Shown here: positions 3,261-13,549 of the stretch, piece after piece
How positions within the stretch are numbered: position 1 is the first letter of the stretch
How the letters are laid out: each line of letters begins with the position of its first letter
IMG/VR virus record: IMGVR_UViG_3300036818_000127
Location: 32,001 to 96,000 of that record
Origin: a virus
Reading direction: 5' to 3' (one strand)
DNA length: 64,000 nt
The notes under the pieces: generated by a model
Seen by the model: the letters and a program-made list of their open reading frames with translations, nothing else
Database searches by the model: none
Told to the model about the DNA's origin: nothing
Position numbers and translations under genes: made by a program

Positions 3261-4083
3261 TACCACCTCCAAGCAGAGACACAATAGGCAACTCTTCTGT
3301 CTGAGGGATATTCTTGCGGATTTCACCTACATCATCACGTATCTCTTTTGCAATGCTTTCTACGACTTCGCCCTTTGCGCTAATAATCTGCTCTTTTTCC
3401 CCTGCTGACAAATCTCTGATATCATCTTTCCCTAATCCCTGGAGTTTAAAGGCGCGATTAACGCCAGCGGCCTGCTTACCTAATGCCTCTCTATTCGTTA
3501 TAAGATTGACCATGAGTATCCTAATCGTATCATCCACAAATGTCTTTTTGCCGCTCCTGGCTTGCTCGTGCTTCTCTATTAAAATAGCATTCGTAACCGT
3601 TATATTGGCATTGTCATATACCCAGGCTCTCTGCTTTTCGCTCTTGATTAGCTTGAACTTCTCCCAACTCTCTGTGAGTATCCACTCAGCAAAAAGATCC
3701 CTTATGCGTTCTCGGACTCCTGTCAAGCGGCGCAACTGGATAGCAGCAAGCACGCTAGGATTTGTGTTAATGAACTCTTTCCATCTTCCATGTATCTCGC
3801 TTCCTTTAATATTATACGTCTTCTCTACCGTTGATGTGATGTTGCCCTTTCTGTCCCTTTTAATAATTGTCTCCATAACCTTCTGCTCTAGGGGAATATT
3901 ATTATAGAGCTGCATCTCATAGAAGGCCATCTTACAAATCCTGTCAAAGCCTTCTATTTCCTCTTTCTTCTCGCTTGCTTCAAAATCGTTGTGGGTTTCA
4001 GTAGACACTAGTGATGATATGGATAACAGATCAAGTGCTTGCATGCTGTTCATCTCCTGTGCGCTAATCAACGTTGCAATCAT
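3253..4083 (-). CDS. hypothetical protein
   Basis: 276 aa ORF; likely start 4053. Confidence 0.6.
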   Translation of the reverse strand: MIATLISAQEMNSMQALDLLSISSLVSTETHNDFEASEKKEEIEGFDRICKMAFYEMQLYNNIPLEQKVMETIIKRDRKGNITSTVEKTYNIKGSEIHGRWKEFINTNPSVLAAIQLRRLTGVRERIRDLFAEWILTESWEKFKLIKSEKQRAWVYDNANITVTNAILIEKHEQARSGKKTFVDDTIRILMVNLITNREALGKQAAGVNRAFKLQGLGKDDIRDLSAGEKEQIISAKGEVVESIAKEIRDDVGEIRKNIPQTEELPIVSLLGGGNE

Positions 4084-4213
4084 TCTCTGAATCGCGTCCT
4101 CCCGACATCAGGTACATCCATCCACATATATTTAGTATAGCACATGAATGCCATTGGCTCTTACCAGCATCATTGATCTCCCATTCTTTTTGTACTATTA
4201 CAAAGAGGTATTG

Positions 4214-4741
4214 TTACCGTTCCTCACCCTTCTTAGGCAGGTATATAGCAATTCCGCTTGTCTGGATTGGTCCTCCGTCTTTGCCAGCTAATTCAATCTT
4301 CTGCACGATGCTAGCACCTCTTGCTTCTCTTTCAGCCTCAAGCGCCAATTTCAAGAGACTTACGCTTGCAAGTGCTCCGAACTTCTCAGCCTTGATAAGT
4401 TCCTCAATCTGCTTTATTGCACGTGCTTGCTGAGTTGTACCAATCAATGCTTGACGCTCATTCATTAGGTCAACTTCCTTCTCAAGCTTCTTCATCTTTT
4501 CTTCAGCTACTTTTGCAATCTGCTCTTGATCAAATTTCTTGGCACGTGCAACCCACTGATACTTGCTACTCCATTCCTCAAGTGTTCGTAAACGCACCGT
4601 CGCTTTGCCGTCGCTTTGCCGTCGCTTTGCTTTAATGACCTCTGCAAGCTTTGTAAGCGAGCGGTCTGGTCCTAGGTAGCAATATTCTAGGAAGGCTGCA
4701 GCGGCAGGCGGTGTCTCAATTTCTTCTTTTCTGTGGGCCAT
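4214..4741 (-). CDS. phage terminase small subunit-like protein
   Basis: AFLEY..LG..RSL..LA HTH, WSSKYQWVARAKKFD, C-terminal ELAGKDGGPI. Confidence 0.7.
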   Translation of the reverse strand: MAHRKEEIETPPAAAAFLEYCYLGPDRSLTKLAEVIKAKRRQSDGKATVRLRTLEEWSSKYQWVARAKKFDQEQIAKVAEEKMKKLEKEVDLMNERQALIGTTQQARAIKQIEELIKAEKFGALASVSLLKLALEAEREARGASIVQKIELAGKDGGPIQTSGIAIYLPKKGEER

Positions 4742-4745
4742 AGTC

Positions 4746-4952
4746 TTACTCTTCTTGCTCCAGTTGTTCGAGCAACTCTTCTAGCACGTCTACCTTGGAT
4801 TGCTTCCTTGCGGCATCTAATGCATCTTCACTCATTGTTTGAGAGTCCCCTGTCAGGACAGCGAGGCCGATCTTCTTCAGCAGCTCTGATGCCTCTGAAC
4901 TGTACTGCGCCTGGAGGATATAGATCATATCAGTAAACTGTTCTTTTCTCAT
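4746..4952 (-). CDS. hypothetical protein
   Basis: ORF with RBS in operon. Confidence 0.5.
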   Translation of the reverse strand: MRKEQFTDMIYILQAQYSSEASELLKKIGLAVLTGDSQTMSEDALDAARKQSKVDVLEELLEQLEQEE

Positions 4953-5662
4953 ATTCTTTTGCTACCTCCAGAACCAGTGCATAAAAGCATACACGATAAA
5001 GTAGATAACCGTAGCTCCAACTGCAAGCCAGAATATAACCTGGAAGCATATGAGGATAGCAGTAAGGATGCCAACTCTCTTGATGGTCTTCTCTGTCCGC
5101 GCAAAGCTTCGATTGAACTGTTGTTCAAACTCTCTACCAAATGGATACATGTACTCTTTCCCTTCCTTTTAATCGGGATAGTTCTCAGTAAGTCTCTTAA
5201 CCACCGAGGTATAATGCTCTGTGTCAAGATCCCAGCCTTGTGCTTTACAGAAGAGATCAACAAGCTTGTCCATCCCATCTTCATCAAGGTAAGATAGGAA
5301 CGGGCCAGAGTCCTTTTCTGGAGCCGTTCCAACTTGTGGATAGAGAGGTCCAAGTCTGTATCATCCACAGTAAGCTTCAATCTGAACTTATCATTTTCGA
5401 GCTTTTCTGGATCGGGCTTTTGTGCATGGCAGTAAGGGCATACATTGATGATATGAGCATTGACAGTTACATCTACAGCAGGTGCATGCATCCAGAGGAT
5501 TGCTTGGGGCATACCATGGACATCAAGGTCAACAAGCCTTACATGAAAGATCTTATCAATGAATTGGCCTGTATCTGCATCGGTAATCTTGGTCTGGTAT
5601 CCTGGCCCACCGTCATTCTGGATGTGAACACGGCGCGGTGGCTGCGGCTTCTCTTCAGACAT
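4949..5662 (-). CDS. hypothetical protein; C-terminus probably frameshifted near 5315
   Basis: Strong RBS; track ORF overlaps the next gene. Confidence 0.45.
   Translation of the reverse strand: MSEEKPQPPRRVHIQNDGGPGYQTKITDADTGQFIDKIFHVRLVDLDVHGMPQAILWMHAPAVDVTVNAHIINVCPYCHAQKPDPEKLENDKFRLKLTVDDTDLDLSIHKLERLQKRTLARSYLTLMKMGWTSLLISSVKHKAGILTQSIIPRWLRDLLRTIPIKRKGKSTCIHLVESLNNSSIEALRGQRRPSRELASLLLSSYASRLYSGLQLELRLSTLSCMLLCTGSGGSKRI
4962..5150 (-). CDS. small membrane protein
   Basis: Hydrophobic C-terminal half. Confidence 0.5.
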   Translation of the reverse strand: MYPFGREFEQQFNRSFARTEKTIKRVGILTAILICFQVIFWLAVGATVIYFIVYAFMHWFWR

Positions 5663-5677
5663 GATTAATCCCTCCTT

Positions 5678-6403
5678 TTAATTCTCACGGATAGCAATCC
5701 AGCCAGCGAAATTAAGATAGCGCCAGAAACAGTCAATCTGCTGGAAACCAGCCATATGCAATAGTTCCTCATTCCACCTTGCTGTCACAGGCACAAGCAC
5801 ACCCTCTAATGAAAGCCTCTTTCGCTCAATAGCCTCTTGGGAGTAGCCATTTGTTGCCTTGAGAGCATAGTAATTCTTGACGAGCAGGGTATCAATCTCG
5901 GCGCTTGATCCCAGAAGCTTCTCAACAAGGATAAACACGCCGCCAGGGACAGTGTGCTTGAAGACCTCGCGGATGATCCGCTGGCGATACTCTATAGGAA
6001 CAAATTGAAGAGTCAGAATAGAAAGCGTGACACTTGCCTTCTCTGGCGGGTAGTCCTTCCGAAGATCAAGGGAACGGATAGAGGCATGTGGTTCTATCCA
6101 CCCATTTGAAAACCGATCACTTGCACACTGCAACATCGGCTGACTTACCTCAATCCCGACACATGTCGTCTGGTGCCAGAACTTCTCAACAAATGGAGCT
6201 AGGGCATCGCCGCGAGCACACCCAAGGTCAACAATAGCCGTATGGGGTTTCACGAAGGGAGAAGCAATATCGAACACAGATTGCCGCATCACCTCATATT
6301 GAGGGATAGAGCGAACAAGCATGTCCTCAAAGACATCTGTGACACTCTGGTCAAAATCCCATTTGGCATCTGTAGGCATGTGCCCTATACTATCTTTTGT
6401 CAT
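5678..6403 (-). CDS. cmoA: carboxy-S-adenosylmethionine synthase (CmoA-like)
   Basis: WDFDQSVTDVFEDML.RSIPQY, DLGC, TLQF, EK and NGYS.E.I..KR.SLE all match CmoA motifs, including the key Arg. Confidence 0.88.
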   Translation of the reverse strand: MTKDSIGHMPTDAKWDFDQSVTDVFEDMLVRSIPQYEVMRQSVFDIASPFVKPHTAIVDLGCARGDALAPFVEKFWHQTTCVGIEVSQPMLQCASDRFSNGWIEPHASIRSLDLRKDYPPEKASVTLSILTLQFVPIEYRQRIIREVFKHTVPGGVFILVEKLLGSSAEIDTLLVKNYYALKATNGYSQEAIERKRLSLEGVLVPVTARWNEELLHMAGFQQIDCFWRYLNFAGWIAIREN

Positions 6404-6410
6404 CGCTCTT

Positions 6411-6545
6411 TCCTACTTCAATTACTCTCTACTATTTGTAGAAAACTCTACAACTTTTTGGTTATGTACCCCAGGAAAGGGCCATACAACTAAGAGAGGA
6501 TAGATTACCCTACCTGACCATAAAACTTCCAGAATGGCACTACAG
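6411..6545 (-). repeat. dispersed intergenic repeat, copy A
   Basis: Similar to 33547-33756 and 48052-48262. Confidence 0.8.
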
Positions 6546-6938
6546 TGGCACCTGGTCCAATTGCTGGTTATACCCGTTTCTTGGTGATCTATTTGCTCTC
6601 ATAATGAGATGAGCCTCAATATCATCTGTTTGGAAGATCTCTTTTGCAAAGGCAATTGCATCCTCCTGGCTAAATTCCTTGCAAGAGCAAATATCAATAT
6701 CAACCTCGCCGTGCTCCGGCCACGTATGCAGACTAACATGACTCTCTGCAATGATGACGAATCCTGATAGACCGGAATCTGCATAGCTCGGTGTTTGGAT
6801 ATTGTAGAGGGATGCTGGGCTTACCTTCTCCATCCCGATGCGAGAGGGATACTCATCAAGGATGCGGCGCATAAGTAATTCGTTACTCAGGATAGCTCGA
6901 TCAATATCGTACATTTCTAACATTAAGTGGATGAGCAT
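6540..6938 (-). CDS. speD: pyruvoyl-dependent SAM decarboxylase family protein (SpeD-like)
   Basis: GLSGFVIIAESHVSLHTWPE self-cleavage motif. Confidence 0.85.
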   Translation of the reverse strand: MLIHLMLEMYDIDRAILSNELLMRRILDEYPSRIGMEKVSPASLYNIQTPSYADSGLSGFVIIAESHVSLHTWPEHGEVDIDICSCKEFSQEDAIAFAKEIFQTDDIEAHLIMRANRSPRNGYNQQLDQVPL

Positions 6939-6953
6939 GCTAGTTCTTTCCTC

Positions 6954-7466
6954 CTATAAAGATCCTGTCTTGAGTGCGTCGATTTTCCTCTGAAGATACC
7001 AGGAGAAAAACCCTTCATTTCTTTTTTGGAATTCAGGATCTTTCCAGGCATTGCCATCAATAGTGCCCCGACATTCAGGACTCCCACATTGACACTGCAT
7101 GCTCCAGACCCCATCATATCTCTCTGTTGTTTCATAATCGAAACATAGCTCTTCGCCTGCCAGGATATCACGGCGGGCAATGAATACCGTTTGGCCTTGC
7201 ACGCCGATATTCGGAGAGCAGCTATGATTCACCCCATAGGATTTCAGGTGGGGCACCCCGAGATAGACGTTATCACAAACATGATAGAAATTATCTGAGA
7301 TGGAGCGAGGAAAAGCATCAGTTTCCTCTTCAGTGATAATGTCCCCACCATATACAAAAGCGATTTCACCTTCTGGAATGAACTCTGTAGCAAAGAGGCC
7401 GATACCCTGGACAGGGCTGTTCTTGAATTCGCTCTTTGGCGAAAAGTAGGAATAATATTTATGCAT
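6954..7466 (-). CDS. SET/post-SET domain methyltransferase
   Basis: GIGLFA, NHSCSPN, GEELCFDY, CQCGSPECRG. Confidence 0.9.
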   Translation of the reverse strand: MHKYYSYFSPKSEFKNSPVQGIGLFATEFIPEGEIAFVYGGDIITEEETDAFPRSISDNFYHVCDNVYLGVPHLKSYGVNHSCSPNIGVQGQTVFIARRDILAGEELCFDYETTERYDGVWSMQCQCGSPECRGTIDGNAWKDPEFQKRNEGFFSWYLQRKIDALKTGSL

Positions 7467-8319
7467 TAGGAACTCCTTGGTGGATCTCACTAAAAAGACG
7501 GCGGTAAATGACAATAATTGCCTTCGCATGGCTTACATTGTACTTTGACTGAAGAAGCGTGTCATGCCACTCACGAAGTCCGCTGTTGATTTGCAATGGA
7601 CTATTTGTTCGGTACCATTTCCCACATTTCCAGAACTCAGGGAAGGCGCGGATAGCTAATCCCTTCTGGACAGGGATGTGGATATCATAGGATTTGCAAG
7701 AAAGAAGAAAGTCTATGAGGTCAGGATTGCGAAAGGAATCATAGATCTGTACCCCACATGAAAGTGCTGTTTTTATACAACTTATATCTGAACCACCTTC
7801 CCAAGCAAGCCATTCACGCCGCTTCTGCGTAAACCATTCCTCCCCATGTTCCTTGATACCTACAGAAAAAAAGCGAGATACGCCCCATAAGTCATCAGCA
7901 TTCATTGCGAATGATGCATCACGGTACCCATCATTAAAAGCTGCTTCTGCAAGATAGAGGAATGGATGCGCACATTGTATATGTATTTTTCTGAGTCTAC
8001 AGACAATTGGCAGCACACGGCGAATATCGGCAATGAGTGTTTCCTCATTCTGAGGGATTGAGACAATCGTATGGGGGATATCAAAGTACTTGCAGACAGA
8101 TCGAGAGACCTTTGCATCACTACTCTCACGGTTCCCTACCTGGAAGGTATAGCAGTGTGGTGGCTTATATCCGAGCGAGAGAATACCAGCAAGGTTTGTC
8201 ATACTATCAGTTCCGCCGCTTAGCATCAGCGGCATAGACACATAGGGCTTGATTGCCTCTTGGAACAGAGATCGGAATGTCTGCGCCTGCTGCTCTTGCT
8301 GTCTGCTCACTGCTCGCAT
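7459..8319 (-). CDS. asparagine synthetase-like ATP-dependent amide ligase without glutaminase domain
   Basis: PP-loop LSGGTDS, NADDLWG; RBS AGGAGAGG before MRAV. Confidence 0.75.
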   Translation of the reverse strand: MRAVSRQQEQQAQTFRSLFQEAIKPYVSMPLMLSGGTDSMTNLAGILSLGYKPPHCYTFQVGNRESSDAKVSRSVCKYFDIPHTIVSIPQNEETLIADIRRVLPIVCRLRKIHIQCAHPFLYLAEAAFNDGYRDASFAMNADDLWGVSRFFSVGIKEHGEEWFTQKRREWLAWEGGSDISCIKTALSCGVQIYDSFRNPDLIDFLLSCKSYDIHIPVQKGLAIRAFPEFWKCGKWYRTNSPLQINSGLREWHDTLLQSKYNVSHAKAIIVIYRRLFSEIHQGVPNA

Positions 8320-9749
8320 TGATCTAGTATCCTCTCCTGTATCGTCTTGGCTACCTTTTCCATCATCACAGGAGGCACTGCACGGCCAAGTCGCTCCCAT
8401 TGCTGTGAATAGGTCCCTGTCAGAATAAAATCATCTGGAAATGCACAGATCCTCTTCAGTTCAGCAATAGAAAATTTCCGCTTCTCAGTTGGATGGGTAA
8501 CGCCAGCAGCAGCAGCAGGTGACCATGCAGTGCCAGCAGTCTGGGTGACAGTAGGGCATGGGCCATCAAGGGGTGCTCGCTGTAGAGAGAAGTATTTTTG
8601 ACTCTGTTCTCCAGGCTTTAATTTATCCCATTCCCTGCCGATTGCAAACTTGCTAATATCAGATTCAGGCTCAACAATCTGTTCCTCTATCCAGTGTGTT
8701 CCTACTGATCCAGATAAAACTGTTGGGCTCGGCTGGTCAGTAATATCGCTGCCATTACCAAAGGCCCCGCGATCATCACGGATAGCACGGATAGGGACAT
8801 GCTGTTCCTCGATATACCATTGCTGCATTGTCGTCAAGGTCGGAGAGGGAGTATCTGTAATGTCCCCCTTGCTATATTGAGGTTGGCCTTTTGCATCATG
8901 GATCGCACGTACAGGAATAGCTTCAATAAGGCTAGAAGGGGAAAGCCCATTTCCAAATGCTGGACTTGCGCCAATAGTGCCGCTAGGTGAGGTGGATGTA
9001 TCTCTCCATCCCTCTGTCCCGAATACTGGTCCAGCGCCTTGTCTGATGATCCAGGGCAATGCCTCACGTACTGTATAGGTATAAGGAAGTGGAGCCGGAT
9101 GGGCTGGCCTTATCTTGTACTGCTCAACAAGATCATTTCTCACACCGACAAAGATAAGGCGTTGGCGCATCTGGGGGACACCGAGCCACTGCGCATCAAG
9201 GATCTTGGCCTCAACAGTATAGCCACATGATTTTAGTTCCTTCAGTATCTCTAGGAAGTAGCCTTTAGCTGTCCCCTTCACAAGCCCGCTCACATTCTCA
9301 GCAACAAATACCTTTGGCTGTAATCCCTTGAGAAGTCGTACATATTCAAAGAAGAGATCATCAACCCGCTGGCGCGTATCACTGTAATCCTTGACTTTGC
9401 CCCAGCTTGCCTCACGCTTTCCAGCAGTTGAGAATGATGCACAGGGAGGACTTCCTTCAAAGACATCAAGCTCACCCTGATTTAGATGTATAGCTTTTAA
9501 AATCTCATCTGGTTTTATTTTACGGATATCACGCGCATCAAGAATAGAATGAGGATGATTAGCTTTATAGGTATCTCGTGCTGCTGGTATAAATTCATTT
9601 GCCCAAAGAATACGGTACCCTGCAAGACGGAATCCAAGGCAACTTCCGCCACACCCTGAGAATGTACTTACAACATTACGGCCATTCCATGGTATTTGTT
9701 CTATTTCCCTCATTGAAGGGACTCTGTAAGGAGGCTTGTCTTTTATCAT
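8307..9749 (-). CDS. C5-cytosine DNA methyltransferase homolog, probable carboxymethyltransferase
   Basis: FSGCGG, GSPPC, ENV, QxRxR; motif X is GRAVPP (N to R); ATGA overlap with the ParB-like gene. Confidence 0.9.
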   Translation of the reverse strand: MIKDKPPYRVPSMREIEQIPWNGRNVVSTFSGCGGSCLGFRLAGYRILWANEFIPAARDTYKANHPHSILDARDIRKIKPDEILKAIHLNQGELDVFEGSPPCASFSTAGKREASWGKVKDYSDTRQRVDDLFFEYVRLLKGLQPKVFVAENVSGLVKGTAKGYFLEILKELKSCGYTVEAKILDAQWLGVPQMRQRLIFVGVRNDLVEQYKIRPAHPAPLPYTYTVREALPWIIRQGAGPVFGTEGWRDTSTSPSGTIGASPAFGNGLSPSSLIEAIPVRAIHDAKGQPQYSKGDITDTPSPTLTTMQQWYIEEQHVPIRAIRDDRGAFGNGSDITDQPSPTVLSGSVGTHWIEEQIVEPESDISKFAIGREWDKLKPGEQSQKYFSLQRAPLDGPCPTVTQTAGTAWSPAAAAGVTHPTEKRKFSIAELKRICAFPDDFILTGTYSQQWERLGRAVPPVMMEKVAKTIQERILDQCEQ

Positions 9750-10342
9750 TTCGGCTTTCCAGACCATTGATAGCTGCATTTTGGGCAACAGTATTCTGTA
9801 TCGATACCTTCATCATAGCTCTTGAAATCATCTGGTGATTCCCTGCCATCATCCTCCTCATCTAGATAGGCATCCCCGAGCTTTTCTAACATCTGGCGGA
9901 GTGCTTCCCCGTCCGTCCCGAGACTTGCAAGATCAAACCCCGCCTGCTCCTGTTCCTCTAAGAGCTGGGCCAGGGACAATTCATCTGGTTCAGCTTTATT
10001 CCCTAAGTGATTGTCGCTAACCATATAGCCTTTGGCGTCTAATATGCTCCACTCTGGAGGTGCGATAACAACAGCCCAGCTATTGAGGTGAGCATACTTT
10101 GCAGGGTTTTCTGCATACAGTTCTTTTGCTGCCTCAGTGATTCCATGACCAGCAAGGATAATGTACTGTTCCTCGCCGACAGCCTGCTGGACGACAATGG
10201 GGCGCACCTGCTTGTACCTCATAAGTGAGGCTTTTAGGTCTGCAATTTGAGCAGGTGGATGTTGATTGTAGTTGGCCGGATGACCTTCAAGGCTATCAAG
10301 GGTTACTCTTTTGAATTGGACCTCATTGCTTGTTGCAGGCAT
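9746..10342 (-). CDS. ParB/Srx N-terminal domain protein of the kind found in phage modification clusters
   Basis: HPANYNQH..QI..L.ASL, ILAGHG, SDN; C-terminal CPKC. Confidence 0.8.
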   Translation of the reverse strand: MPATSNEVQFKRVTLDSLEGHPANYNQHPPAQIADLKASLMRYKQVRPIVVQQAVGEEQYIILAGHGITEAAKELYAENPAKYAHLNSWAVVIAPPEWSILDAKGYMVSDNHLGNKAEPDELSLAQLLEEQEQAGFDLASLGTDGEALRQMLEKLGDAYLDEEDDGRESPDDFKSYDEGIDTEYCCPKCSYQWSGKPK

Positions 10343-10446
10343 GAATGTCTCCATTAAAACAAAAAGGACACTTTTCAACCTCATAGTATGAGGGAAAAGC
10401 GCCTGATGCATATTGCATTGTCTAAGCGTTATGTATTCTGTTTTTG

Positions 10447-10710
10447 TTAGTCTTGAGGCTGAGAAACTGCTACTCCGTTATACAAACCATACCTTTTACT
10501 TGGTCTTTTGTGTTTGTATGCTCTATTCGTTATGGAGTACGTCTTCGTACCCAGCCTCATCCCTTGGCCGTCATTCTGGAACTTAAATTCAACACGGCCA
10601 TGACCGCCCTCTCGCTCAATGAGGCGTTTACTGCTCTGGAGGTAGGCATACATCTCCAGGTCCTCATCGTTTGGTCCAGTCGGCAAGATTGAACTATTCT
10701 CTGAATCCAT
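10447..10710 (-). CDS. hypothetical protein
   Basis: ORF with RBS. Confidence 0.5.
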   Translation of the reverse strand: MDSENSSILPTGPNDEDLEMYAYLQSSKRLIEREGGHGRVEFKFQNDGQGMRLGTKTYSITNRAYKHKRPSKRYGLYNGVAVSQPQD

Positions 10711-10929
10711 TGTATCCTATTCTTCTATGCTATAGGGACAATTATTCTAATAACAATGTAACATACGTTCGATATATAAATCAAGTGGACAAGCGGACAT
10801 GACACAAAAGAAGGAAGGGGTTTACCTCTAGATACTGAAATGTGTTGAAGAAATCAGAACTACGAGGTAGTTAGGAAGTACTCGGCCACGTTTATAGTAG
10901 AATCCCCTCCTGTCATCATCATAACATAT

Positions 10930-12159
10930 CTATAGTCTTTTGTTCATCAGCAAATGGACCCTACTCTTTTCTGCTACAATTTTGGGTATATGTTTTTCTA
11001 GAGAGAGTACAGTGCCGTGCTTCTGGAAAATATATTCTGAAACATCCATGTGCTCAAATACATAGGGCTTAAATACTGTATCCGATAAGTCCTCAACAAA
11101 ATAAGCCTTACTAGGCAAGTTCTCAATAAGAAGAGTAAATAATGCAGCATAGACACCAACAATCACCTGCATGCATGTTCCATTTGTGCCATTGGCAGCA
11201 AAGTTGAGTGCTGAATTAAAGTAGTATACTTTTTTATCATCATAGTCCAAGATGACACCAATATTATCTGAACCATTGATAGGGATGAGTATATTATCAC
11301 CATGAACAAGATCTGCATGACTGACATGATGTTTCCTGCTATAGATGTCATCCATATAATCCATTGTCTTCATGTGGATGGCATAGATGAATTGAGAGGG
11401 GATATCATACTTTTGTGCAATAGATACATTTTCATCATGCAGGATAATAAGTCCTTGGGGATAGGCATCCAGTTTCATAATAGGAGAGAGAAGAGGCTCC
11501 ATATCCATTCTATGTTTCAGTCCATTAGGGAAAAGTTCTCTAAGCTGATCTCTTCCGAGCATTATCCCGCTAGGGCTGCTGACTGCCTCGACTAGGAACT
11601 CATGAATAGACCATGTGATCGTAGGCATCCATTTTTCCCGAGCAGTTGACGTATCATATTCAAAATGGATAACCTCTCGCGGGACCCCATATTTTTCAAT
11701 GCCATACTGCACCCACATATTCACAACCCCTGGATTCATTCCAGTACAGAGAATATGAGGGGCACCTGTAAGTACCTCTTTCCTATCATAGATATCACGA
11801 ATAAGCTCTAAGCAGGATTGGTCATCATTATTCATGCATGCATTGACATAAGAGACATGAGCCTTATTTGTTGCTTCTAGGATAGGAAGTGAATCAGCAT
11901 CAGTCAGGTCCAGAACGATATCAATATGATACCTTTCGAGAATAGCAACGTAGTCAGCATAATCTGAGGTAAGTTCTTTTTGTATAAATGTGTAATCTAG
12001 CTTCTTGTGGTCAAGGCGTGGATTAACAAGAACACCATTAGACATATCAAGAAGAACGACTGTACCAAACATCTCTCTATAGAAAGGCAGATAGAGAAGG
12101 ACTGCATTAGAGATACTTCCAGAAGCACCAAGCAGCAGTAGGTTTTTTATTCTACTCAA
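10930..12159 (-). CDS. homospermidine synthase / saccharopine dehydrogenase family protein
   Basis: N-terminal Rossmann LLLGASG, GMNPGVVN, EYDT, TWS..EF..E, HDE. Confidence 0.75.
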   Translation of the reverse strand: MSRIKNLLLLGASGSISNAVLLYLPFYREMFGTVVLLDMSNGVLVNPRLDHKKLDYTFIQKELTSDYADYVAILERYHIDIVLDLTDADSLPILEATNKAHVSYVNACMNNDDQSCLELIRDIYDRKEVLTGAPHILCTGMNPGVVNMWVQYGIEKYGVPREVIHFEYDTSTAREKWMPTITWSIHEFLVEAVSSPSGIMLGRDQLRELFPNGLKHRMDMEPLLSPIMKLDAYPQGLIILHDENVSIAQKYDIPSQFIYAIHMKTMDYMDDIYSRKHHVSHADLVHGDNILIPINGSDNIGVILDYDDKKVYYFNSALNFAANGTNGTCMQVIVGVYAALFTLLIENLPSKAYFVEDLSDTVFKPYVFEHMDVSEYIFQKHGTVLSLEKHIPKIVAEKSRVHLLMNKRL

Positions 12160-12374
12160 GAGCGTACCTTCTCCTTAATGATGCATGCTTCGATATCTTC
12201 TCTATTATAGAGTATTCGGTTACCGACAGGCTCAGTACGAACAGGATTTCTCTTCCTCTGTGATAGTCTCCTTATGTATTTTGGAGAGATCGGACGCTTA
12301 TATTTCAAGCTCAACAGTTCAGAGGCATCATGAGCAGAAATGTAGTCAGCAAGAGCGATGATTTTTCTTGGCAT
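12156..12374 (-). CDS. HTH DNA-binding protein (excisionase/MerR-like)
   Basis: YISAHDASELL...YIRRL...LYNREDI. Confidence 0.65.
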   Translation of the reverse strand: MPRKIIALADYISAHDASELLSLKYKRPISPKYIRRLSQRKRNPVRTEPVGNRILYNREDIEACIIKEKVRS

Positions 12375-12526
12375 GCAATGTATCTCCTGGCATATATCTA
12401 GCTCTTTCTAGTATATCACAAAAAAGAGGGGCCTAGGACACATAAAAGGCTTGACACAAGGAGTCCTAGGATGTAAAATGAGAGGGTCTAGGTACCGATT
12501 ATTTAAGATAATCAGTATCCAGACAA

Positions 12527-13549
12527 ATGGAGGTACTCATGGAATATGAAGTTATCCCTGTTCATTCCACTCTTGACCAAGTTGGGCAAAGTGAGAATGT
12601 CATCTCAGCAAACAATGCTTTTAAGGACTATCATGACAGGATAGACCCAAATACTTTTGCACGTCAAAGTTATGACATGGCACTCTTTTGCGCATTTATT
12701 GCAAGCAAGAAAGTGCTAGTAGACAAAGATGAGCTATTATCCAGTCCCAGAGCATGGTTAGATATCACTCACGGAATGATTGACAGCTTTGCAAAATGGA
12801 TGATAGAAGAAGGCTTTGCTATAGGCTCAATAAATATACGTTTATCTACTGTAAAGACGTACTTCAAGCTTGCTTCTAGAGCAGGCTATATTCAACCTGA
12901 TGAAGCAGTAAAAGCCCATTTTGTAAAAGGGTACAGCTACAAGCAAGGGCTAAACGTTGATGAACGAAGGGAGATAAAGCGCAAGGATAAGAGCAAGAAA
13001 GCTGAGCCCATACCATTAACAAAAGAGCAAACGGATCTACTTAAAAAGCATCCAAATACACCACAAGGGCGACGTGATGCCTTGCTTATGTGCTTGCTCT
13101 TAGATCATGGTTTACGATGTGGGGAGGTTGCAGACCTTACACGTGCCAATATTCAACTTACCTCTGGAATACTTACCTTTCATAGGGAGAAAACCAAAGA
13201 AGAGGATAAGCATAAACTCACGAATGATACATTGGTTGCCCTCATGAGGTACTTTGAAGTCTACCATCCAACTGGCAAGCTCATAGCTGGCAGCCATAGG
13301 AGCGGCCAACTTATGGGGGAAATGAGCAGAAGAGCCATAACTAAGCGTGTACAAGTCTTAGGGGAGCAGATACTTGGGATAAAGAATCTCTCAGCGCATG
13401 ATTGCAGACACGCTTGGGTGGAAGCTGCCATACGAGGGGGAACCAATATCAAGACGCTCCAACAAGCGGGTGGCTGGTCAAGTCCCGCTATGCCACTGAG
13501 ATACGCCGCAAAGGCTGAAATTTCAAATGAAGGAGTAAAACTAGGATGA
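12527..13549 (+). CDS. tyrosine recombinase/integrase
   Basis: HGLRCGE, K, HDCRH, GW, catalytic Tyr in PLRY. Confidence 0.92.
   Translation: MEVLMEYEVIPVHSTLDQVGQSENVISANNAFKDYHDRIDPNTFARQSYDMALFCAFIASKKVLVDKDELLSSPRAWLDITHGMIDSFAKWMIEEGFAIGSINIRLSTVKTYFKLASRAGYIQPDEAVKAHFVKGYSYKQGLNVDERREIKRKDKSKKAEPIPLTKEQTDLLKKHPNTPQGRRDALLMCLLLDHGLRCGEVADLTRANIQLTSGILTFHREKTKEEDKHKLTNDTLVALMRYFEVYHPTGKLIAGSHRSGQLMGEMSRRAITKRVQVLGEQILGIKNLSAHDCRHAWVEAAIRGGTNIKTLQQAGGWSSPAMPLRYAAKAEISNEGVKLG

Follow-up and report, generated by a model that had tools for sequence, protein, structure and literature searches.

Among the known systems closest to the locus reported here is that of Synechococcus phage S-B43, with which the CmoX family entered the literature in December 2025 (Yang et al., Nat Commun 2025, PMC12783734). 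Its wild-type SpCmoX (PDB 8YF3, 1.9 A, crystallised with carboxy-S-adenosylmethionine, Cx-SAM) is a DNA cytosine C5-carboxymethyltransferase that takes Cx-SAM only; the cofactor is supplied by a phage CmoA, and SpCmoY, an asparagine-synthetase-like ligase, links glycine to the new carboxylate. Here we analyse a gene, which we call cmoX, at 8307..9749 on the minus strand of a 64,000-nucleotide stretch of virus DNA (the window; bases 32001-96000 of IMG/VR record IMGVR_UViG_3300036818_000127). The gene very probably encodes a CmoX-type DNA cytosine C5-carboxymethyltransferase, with cofactor supply by a neighbouring CmoA and a CmoY-like ligation scheme. The source record has 109,417 bp and direct terminal repeats and is rated complete; it is the complete, 109 kb genome of an uncultured phage, and cmoX is its sole PF00145 gene.

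Arg350 of SpCmoX contacts the carboxymethyl group of the cofactor and superposes on Asn304 of M.HhaI, and the authors liken it to the engineered N374K substitution of M.MpeI; the R350N mutant has no activity with either Cx-SAM or S-adenosylmethionine (SAM) (PMC12783734). The same study lists 5,615 CmoX candidates with SPPC and Arg, whose frequent neighbours are CmoA, a ligase and a ParB-domain protein, covers 2,251 ligase loci, and leaves open the "alternative amine substrates" of the ligases. It makes no mention of polyamine, decarboxylase or SET genes, and its main text makes none of the residue after the catalytic Cys.

Motif X arginine and cofactor pocket of the window enzyme

The cmoX frame is open from a TTG at 9788 (493 amino acids), and an ATG at 9749 gives a protein of 480 amino acids; the stop is the TGA at 8309..8307. 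Judged from the sequence, ATG 9749 is the more probable start: it shares an ATGA with the stop codon (TGA) of the ParB-like gene upstream, and the alignments of relatives start only at residues 13-18 of the open reading frame (ORF) 8307..9788. Residue numbers in CmoX are counted from TTG 9788 throughout. The reverse complement of 8368..8400 reads ..QQWERLGRAVP.. in this frame, within motif X (QQWERLGRAVPP, residues 462-473, 8370..8405, minus strand), and the motif X Arg is encoded by CGT at 8384..8382(-), which is residue 469 from TTG 9788 and 456 from ATG 9749. The original prediction for this DNA, made from the letters and their translations, had the protein ending at this motif; a further 20 residues (VMMEKVAKTIQERILDQCEQ) in fact lie beyond ..AVPP before the stop codon.

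CmoX matches C5 cytosine methyltransferases in Pfam (PF00145, 7.8e-59) and NCBIfam (TIGR00675, 4e-53), and motifs I, IV, VI, VIII and X can all be read in its translation as FSGCGG, SPPC, ENV, QMRQR and GRAVPP. Its best sequence match in the PDB is SpCmoX itself (8YF3, 3.4e-68, or 7e-92 with the family profile). The catalytic core of its AlphaFold model mostly has a predicted local distance difference test score (pLDDT) >90, and a Foldseek search with the model again places 8YF3 at the top (E 3.6e-27), followed by HaeIII, DNMT1 and HhaI.

The Arg lies where other C5 methyltransferases have Asn. HMMER pairs ..WERLGRAVPP.. of CmoX with ..YKMIGNAVP.. of M.HaeIII, and a profile of 39 relatives pairs lgRavPP with GNAVP (HaeIII) and GNAVPP (DNMT1), each alignment being full-length and made of one domain; Arg469 also aligns, without gaps, with Arg350 of SpCmoX. 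The claim that an Arg replaces the motif X Asn is therefore borne out. At a constant offset of 18, Cys116 inside SPPC pairs with SpCmoX Cys98, and F43, E65, F66 and D87 pair with F25, E47, F48 and D69, which make the adenine and ribose contacts of Cx-SAM. The columns of these four residues are invariant in one alignment of relatives (A1) and SPPC is invariant in both (A1 and A2), and every cofactor contact named for SpCmoX is kept in the window CmoX. Motif IV (S113-P114-P115-C116-A117, 9438..9452, minus strand) carries the catalytic Cys116 followed by Ala (codon at 9438..9440(-)) for the canonical Gln; the canonical enzymes HaeIII and DNMT1 read PCQ. At the level of sequence, the window enzyme has all of the features by which the CmoX family is recognised.

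Arginine and asparagine among CmoX relatives

We compared the motif X position across 82 loci, of which 80 are related loci that emerged when viral contigs were scanned and the other two are those of S-B43 and Streptomyces phage TurkishDelight; the gene is complete in 78. The residue is Arg in 73 of the 82 and Asn in the other nine. When the complete-gene loci were searched with profiles, cmoA was present on every Arg locus (69/69) and on none of the Asn loci (0/9), and the ligase gene on 45/69 and 0/9 respectively. The nine Asn relatives (L009-L012, L014-L016, L082 and L083) have GNAVPP or GNSVPP, are 43-52% identical to the window CmoX and are without cmoA and ligase. A quick maximum-likelihood tree gathers the Asn rows into a single group (Shimodaira-Hasegawa-like approximate likelihood ratio test, SH-aLRT, 86) nested among Arg rows, so the split between Arg with cmoA and Asn without it reflects one evolutionary event and not nine. 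Judged from its sequences, the Asn group seems either to have gone back naturally to methyl transfer or to have kept it while the CmoX family radiated.

A wider set was taken as the best 150 of 29,431 matches at E <=0.001 from 1.8 billion cluster representatives, and these were aligned with the window CmoX and SpCmoX (152 rows). Among the 138 scorable rows of this best-150 alignment, motif X has Arg in 78 and Asn in 60. Directly after the catalytic Cys, 72 of the 78 Arg rows have Ala or Ser and none has Gln; 47 of the 60 Asn rows have Gln there and none has Ala or Ser. As a raw association this co-variation within the best 150 matches is strong, but it comes with no valid test of significance. 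Gln82 and Asn304 of M.HhaI adjoin each other close to the transferred methyl group, and the co-variation would therefore be in keeping with a pocket remodelled at both positions together. As the Arg is kept in 73/82 loci and in 78/138 rows of the best-150 alignment, with cmoA always alongside it in the locus set, its occurrence by chance is excluded.

Comparison with known enzymes and loci

The window locus resembles that of S-B43 in that a single gene block encodes all three types of enzyme, with a ParB-type neighbour, and SPPC, the pocket Arg and the cofactor-binding residues are common to the two CmoX proteins. The differences are that the identities are just 39-42% for CmoX, 28% for CmoA (3e-27) and 27% for the ligase (7e-17 against SpCmoY); that the window CmoX has 480 amino acids against 372 for SpCmoX, with about 110 extra residues in its target-recognition region, a tandem duplication among them; and that the window operon is accompanied by SET, S-adenosylmethionine decarboxylase (AdoMetDC)-like and homospermidine synthase/carboxyspermidine dehydrogenase (HSS/CASDH)-like genes, in a gene order that is not the same.

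The closest full-length relative from an isolated phage is gp123 of TurkishDelight (encoded with gp124 and gp125), which is 47% identical over 97% of the query. It shares GRAVPP, and its gene has two ParB-like genes upstream and ligase and CmoA-like genes downstream; it differs from the window locus in that its ligase bears a glutamine amidotransferase domain (the ammonia type of PMC12783734), polyamine-type genes are absent, and the duplicated target-recognition segment has one copy fewer. The engineered M.MpeI N374K and M.MedI variants likewise use Cx-SAM because a positively charged side chain takes the place of the motif X Asn, although the window residue is a natural Arg rather than an engineered Lys, and the window CmoX also has Ala for Gln after the Cys and a dedicated phage CmoA.

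Duplication in the target-recognition region

The target-recognition region of the window CmoX contains a tandem duplication of two segments of about 40 residues, I291-H330 and V331-I371 (8676..8918, minus strand), each with the motif DITDxPSPT. Identical residues occupy 20 of 44 aligned columns (z = 12.4, reached by 0/1000 shuffles). Third and fourth repeat copies were considered and rejected, as just the short PxPT motif recurs there (z <1). A motif of the PxPT type is also found at the canonical position, where PCPTVTQ is paired with PSPTLTA of SpCmoX. The number of PxPT motifs per relative ranges from 0 to 4 and tracks the length of the region (r = 0.76), and in several CmoX relatives the target-recognition region is as long or longer.

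Bacillus phages SPR, phi3T and H2 reportedly encode multispecific C5 methyltransferases with tandem target-recognizing domains (Wilke et al. 1988; Gunthert and Reiners 1987). What these enzymes share with the window CmoX is a single catalytic core and a variable region made of several segments in a row, the segments being compared by description only; the Bacillus phage enzymes transfer methyl groups, unlike the carboxymethyl transfer predicted for CmoX. By analogy, we conjecture that the duplicated segment could make the window CmoX multispecific.

Genes surrounding cmoX

The genes from the HSS-like gene to cmoA all lie on the minus strand, and those from the ParB-like gene to the decarboxylase-like gene overlap or are near-adjacent. 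A scan of 4000..12700 for promoters and terminators gave sites no more frequent than in shuffles, so the operon boundaries are set by gene spacing alone. The predicted carboxy-SAM synthase, CmoA, is encoded at 5678..6403(-), four genes downstream of cmoX, and is matched by TIGR00740 (1.7e-41, positions 13-238 of 239, under the equivalog cut-off), phrog_4752 (4.3e-70) and E. coli CmoA 4GEK (3.4e-30). A 237-residue ORF (4949..5662, minus strand) between cmoA and the small terminase gene (4214..4741, minus strand) has no match in Pfam, NCBIfam or PHROG.

The CmoY-like ATP-dependent amide ligase (7459..8319, minus strand) consists of the synthetase domain of asparagine synthetase without a glutaminase domain (PF00733, 2.6e-07; PP-loop SGGTDS). 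Its family profile matches residues 207-451 of AsnB (1CT9, 1.2e-10), and the ligase also matches phrog_26038 (function unassigned). The gene most likely starts at ATG 8319, to judge from the AGGAG-type ribosome site in front of it, and the gene call of the collection likewise has 286 amino acids; an ATG at 8400, which opens the overlapping ORF 7459..8400, was rejected in its favour. The end of the ligase gene is overlapped by 8 nt by the ATG of a SET-domain methyltransferase gene (6954..7466, minus strand), whose product belongs to a small bacterial SET family (PF00856, 9.2e-14; SET and post-SET of KMT2A, 1.2e-10). A class 1b AdoMetDC/SpeD-like pyruvoyl decarboxylase follows (6540..6938, minus strand), with the ESH cleavage site, HTWPE and the Cys kept (PF02675, 1e-24; Thermotoga maritima AdoMetDC, 6e-11); it scores 69.2 bits with TIGR03330, just under the cut-off of 75.65.

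Upstream of cmoX is the gene for a ParB-like protein (9746..10411, minus strand; phrog_620, 6.8e-22); such a gene is present on 74 related loci of the locus set, and an association of CmoX with ParBc was reported for the family too (PMC12783734). The block is opened by a gene at 10930..12159(-) for an NAD(P)-dependent enzyme of the homospermidine synthase/carboxyspermidine dehydrogenase superfamily. The best sequence match of its profile is HSS 6Y87 (1.5e-09), and in Foldseek its model (pLDDT 89.9) resembles CASDH 8H4Z and HSS 6Y87 equally, both with a template modelling score of about 0.7. Its family comprises hundreds of homologues of about 400 amino acids at about 50% identity, many from DPANN archaea, and carries the JGI label homospermidine synthase; the TTG start used here retains the nucleotide-binding loop GASGS, which a 380-residue version in a public collection (P0026) is without. 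Neither the HSS-like nor the SET gene matches a PHROG family, and they are therefore rare in phages. A 340-residue ORF at 12527..13549(+) diverges from the modification block, and next to it lies the site in the region that most resembles a promoter (TTGACA-17-TAAAAT, 12451..12479).

Genes between the ligase gene and cmoA

The window ligase falls into a glutaminase-less group with 24 relatives (P0002-P0025) at 33-61% identity, and the nearest relatives of the window CmoX (L018, L008 and L046) are accompanied by ligases that contain a glutamine amidotransferase domain (the ammonia type of PMC12783734). Ligase relatives in viral contigs adjoin cmoX and cmoA in nearly all of the loci found, and the gene content between the ligase gene and cmoA varies among loci. 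Scans of viral contigs for patterns based on the window ligase alone or the HSS-like protein alone found no relatives, and scans of metagenomes and genomes with the ligase alignment gave one new informative locus only, L118.

In the window, the interval between the ligase gene and cmoA holds the SET and AdoMetDC-like genes. Two loci have a DegT/DnrJ-type pyridoxal-phosphate aminotransferase and a myo-inositol-1-phosphate-synthase-like gene in this position (L088:10806-13245 and L090/L091, at L090:10740-12808), and two others a DegT-type aminotransferase alone (L089:826-1971 and L118:5340-6518, a contig of a Rubritalea metagenome-assembled genome); these contents hint that the ligases may use amines of the amino-sugar or aminocyclitol kind. 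In L029 (IMGVR_UViG_3300026516_000166), a 68-kb high-GC phage contig unrelated to the window phage, a single ORF between the CmoY-like ligase gene and cmoA (L029:11369-12514, plus strand) fuses AdoMetDC (PF02675, 3.6e-14) to spermidine synthase (PF01564, 1.9e-34). The fusion lies just upstream of large terminase and portal genes, and a weak ornithine-cyclodeaminase-like ORF is present between cmoX and the ligase gene of the same contig. The gene contents suggest that the interval from the ligase gene to cmoA may serve as an exchangeable slot for amine-supply cassettes.

Among the polyamine genes of phages AdoMetDC is the commonest (Li et al., PMC9992855), and AdoMetDC/SpeD has derivatives that decarboxylate ornithine or arginine (Li et al., PMC9992855, PMC10407285). 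In bacteria, the combination of SpeD and HSS without spermidine synthase went with SpeD homologues that are ornithine-decarboxylase derivatives clustered with HSS (Li et al.); the window locus is similar in having a class 1b SpeD-like gene and an HSS-type gene and no spermidine synthase. It differs from the phage polyamine enzymes of Li et al. in that the window genes lie inside a DNA-modification operon, and from their HSS in that the window protein resembles carboxyspermidine dehydrogenase equally. No spermidine synthase gene was found in the phage genome, which excludes a self-contained SpeD/SpeE pathway.

Proposed pathway and alternative explanations

We infer the cofactor, the product and the ligation step from homology, residue equivalence, fold and gene linkage. 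Phage CmoA would make carboxy-SAM from SAM and prephenate; CmoX would flip the target cytosine out, Cys116 would attack C6, and the carboxymethyl group would be transferred to C5 while Arg469 holds its carboxylate, giving 5-carboxymethylcytosine. The ligase would then most likely adenylate the carboxylate and join an amine to it. The original prediction deduced a cofactor-switched enzyme class, correctly, but that class had already been published (Yang et al., PMC12783734). The switch from SAM to carboxy-SAM draws support from the homology to SpCmoX and from the linked cmoA, which lies in the same gene block on the same strand; to call the Arg "direct evidence" of the switch was an overstatement, as the case is one of homology and gene context. 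The R-to-N revertant proposed for assay already exists as SpCmoX R350N, and since that mutant is dead with both SAM and Cx-SAM (PMC12783734) a revertant of this kind would not simply restore methylation.

Several points weigh against the assignment. Identity to SpCmoX is just 39-42%, and CmoA scores 142.5 bits against an NCBIfam equivalog cut-off of 193.3 (TIGR00740). The perfect association of Arg with cmoA counts as a single observation in the locus sample, and of the at least nine Arg/Asn changes needed on the best tree of the 152-row alignment, well-supported branches provide only two independent contrasts, so that a sign test of the co-variation is powerless. The target-recognition region is modelled at pLDDT <50 and gives no basis for a target sequence. 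CmoX might instead be a conventional C5 methyltransferase that depends on SAM and tolerates the Arg without consequence for cofactor choice, as its catalytic motifs are all intact and Asn relatives exist at 43-52% identity; we regard this as very improbable, because SpCmoX, which shares this Arg, makes no use of SAM (PMC12783734), Arg occurs without cmoA in none of 69 loci, and the neighbouring pocket position changes along with it. Still less credible is a decayed or non-catalytic DNA-binding relic. The unusually long, internally duplicated and poorly modelled target-recognition region might suggest one, but the frame is open and uninterrupted, all catalytic and cofactor residues are kept, the catalytic core is modelled mostly with pLDDT >90, and the region is of similar or greater length in several relatives.

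Which amine is joined is a separate question, on which our views are more evenly spread. The polyamine-type genes around a glutaminase-less ligase, together with the L029 fusion in the same slot, suggest that the amine may be a polyamine, and we see a product in which the window ligase joins putrescine, homospermidine, spermidine or a related polyamine to 5-carboxymethylcytosine as an amide as a real possibility, a little short of an even chance. Only tentatively, we suggest that the AdoMetDC-like and HSS/CASDH-like enzymes would make this amine and that the SET protein might N-methylate it. A substantial possibility, which we hold about as tentatively, is that CmoX and CmoA act as proposed and the ligase adds glycine or another amino acid, as in S-B43, or nothing, the polyamine genes being ordinary auxiliaries that happen to lie nearby and that, for example, raise free polyamines for replication or for packing of extra-negative DNA. 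SpCmoY, the sole ligase of this kind to have been assayed, does use glycine (PMC12783734); AdoMetDC, as the commonest phage polyamine gene (PMC9992855), is found in 135 phage records, mostly of cyanophages; the window ligase resembles the polyamine-linked ligase of L029 (35% identity) no more closely than it does the aminotransferase-linked ligases (34-37%); and the absence of spermidine synthase from the phage genome points the same way. An auxiliary role accounts less readily for the fact that the ligase gene is separated from cmoA by the SET and decarboxylase-like genes, with overlap or a spacing of 15 nt, for the AdoMetDC-spermidine synthase fusion in the same slot of an unrelated high-GC phage, for the other amine-forming enzymes that fill the slot elsewhere, or for the rarity in phages of the HSS-like and SET genes.

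Implications for the CmoX family

As the Arg substitution is the published signature of CmoX, the finding mainly adds one diverged member to the family. The close Asn relatives and the position after the catalytic Cys provide a natural comparison set that could guide the engineering of carboxymethyltransferases, and the exchange of Gln for Ala or Ser together with the motif X change may help to explain why the single mutant R350N of SpCmoX is dead. Variable, modular target-recognition regions may widen the range of sequences that are modified. Possible novelty lies in the amine attached by the neighbouring genes, in the downstream chemistry and in the exchangeable cassette: polyamine-making genes inside the operons of two unrelated phages are a concrete candidate for the "alternative amine substrates" of the ligases, and an exchangeable slot, if true, predicts a family of different cytosine amide hypermodifications.

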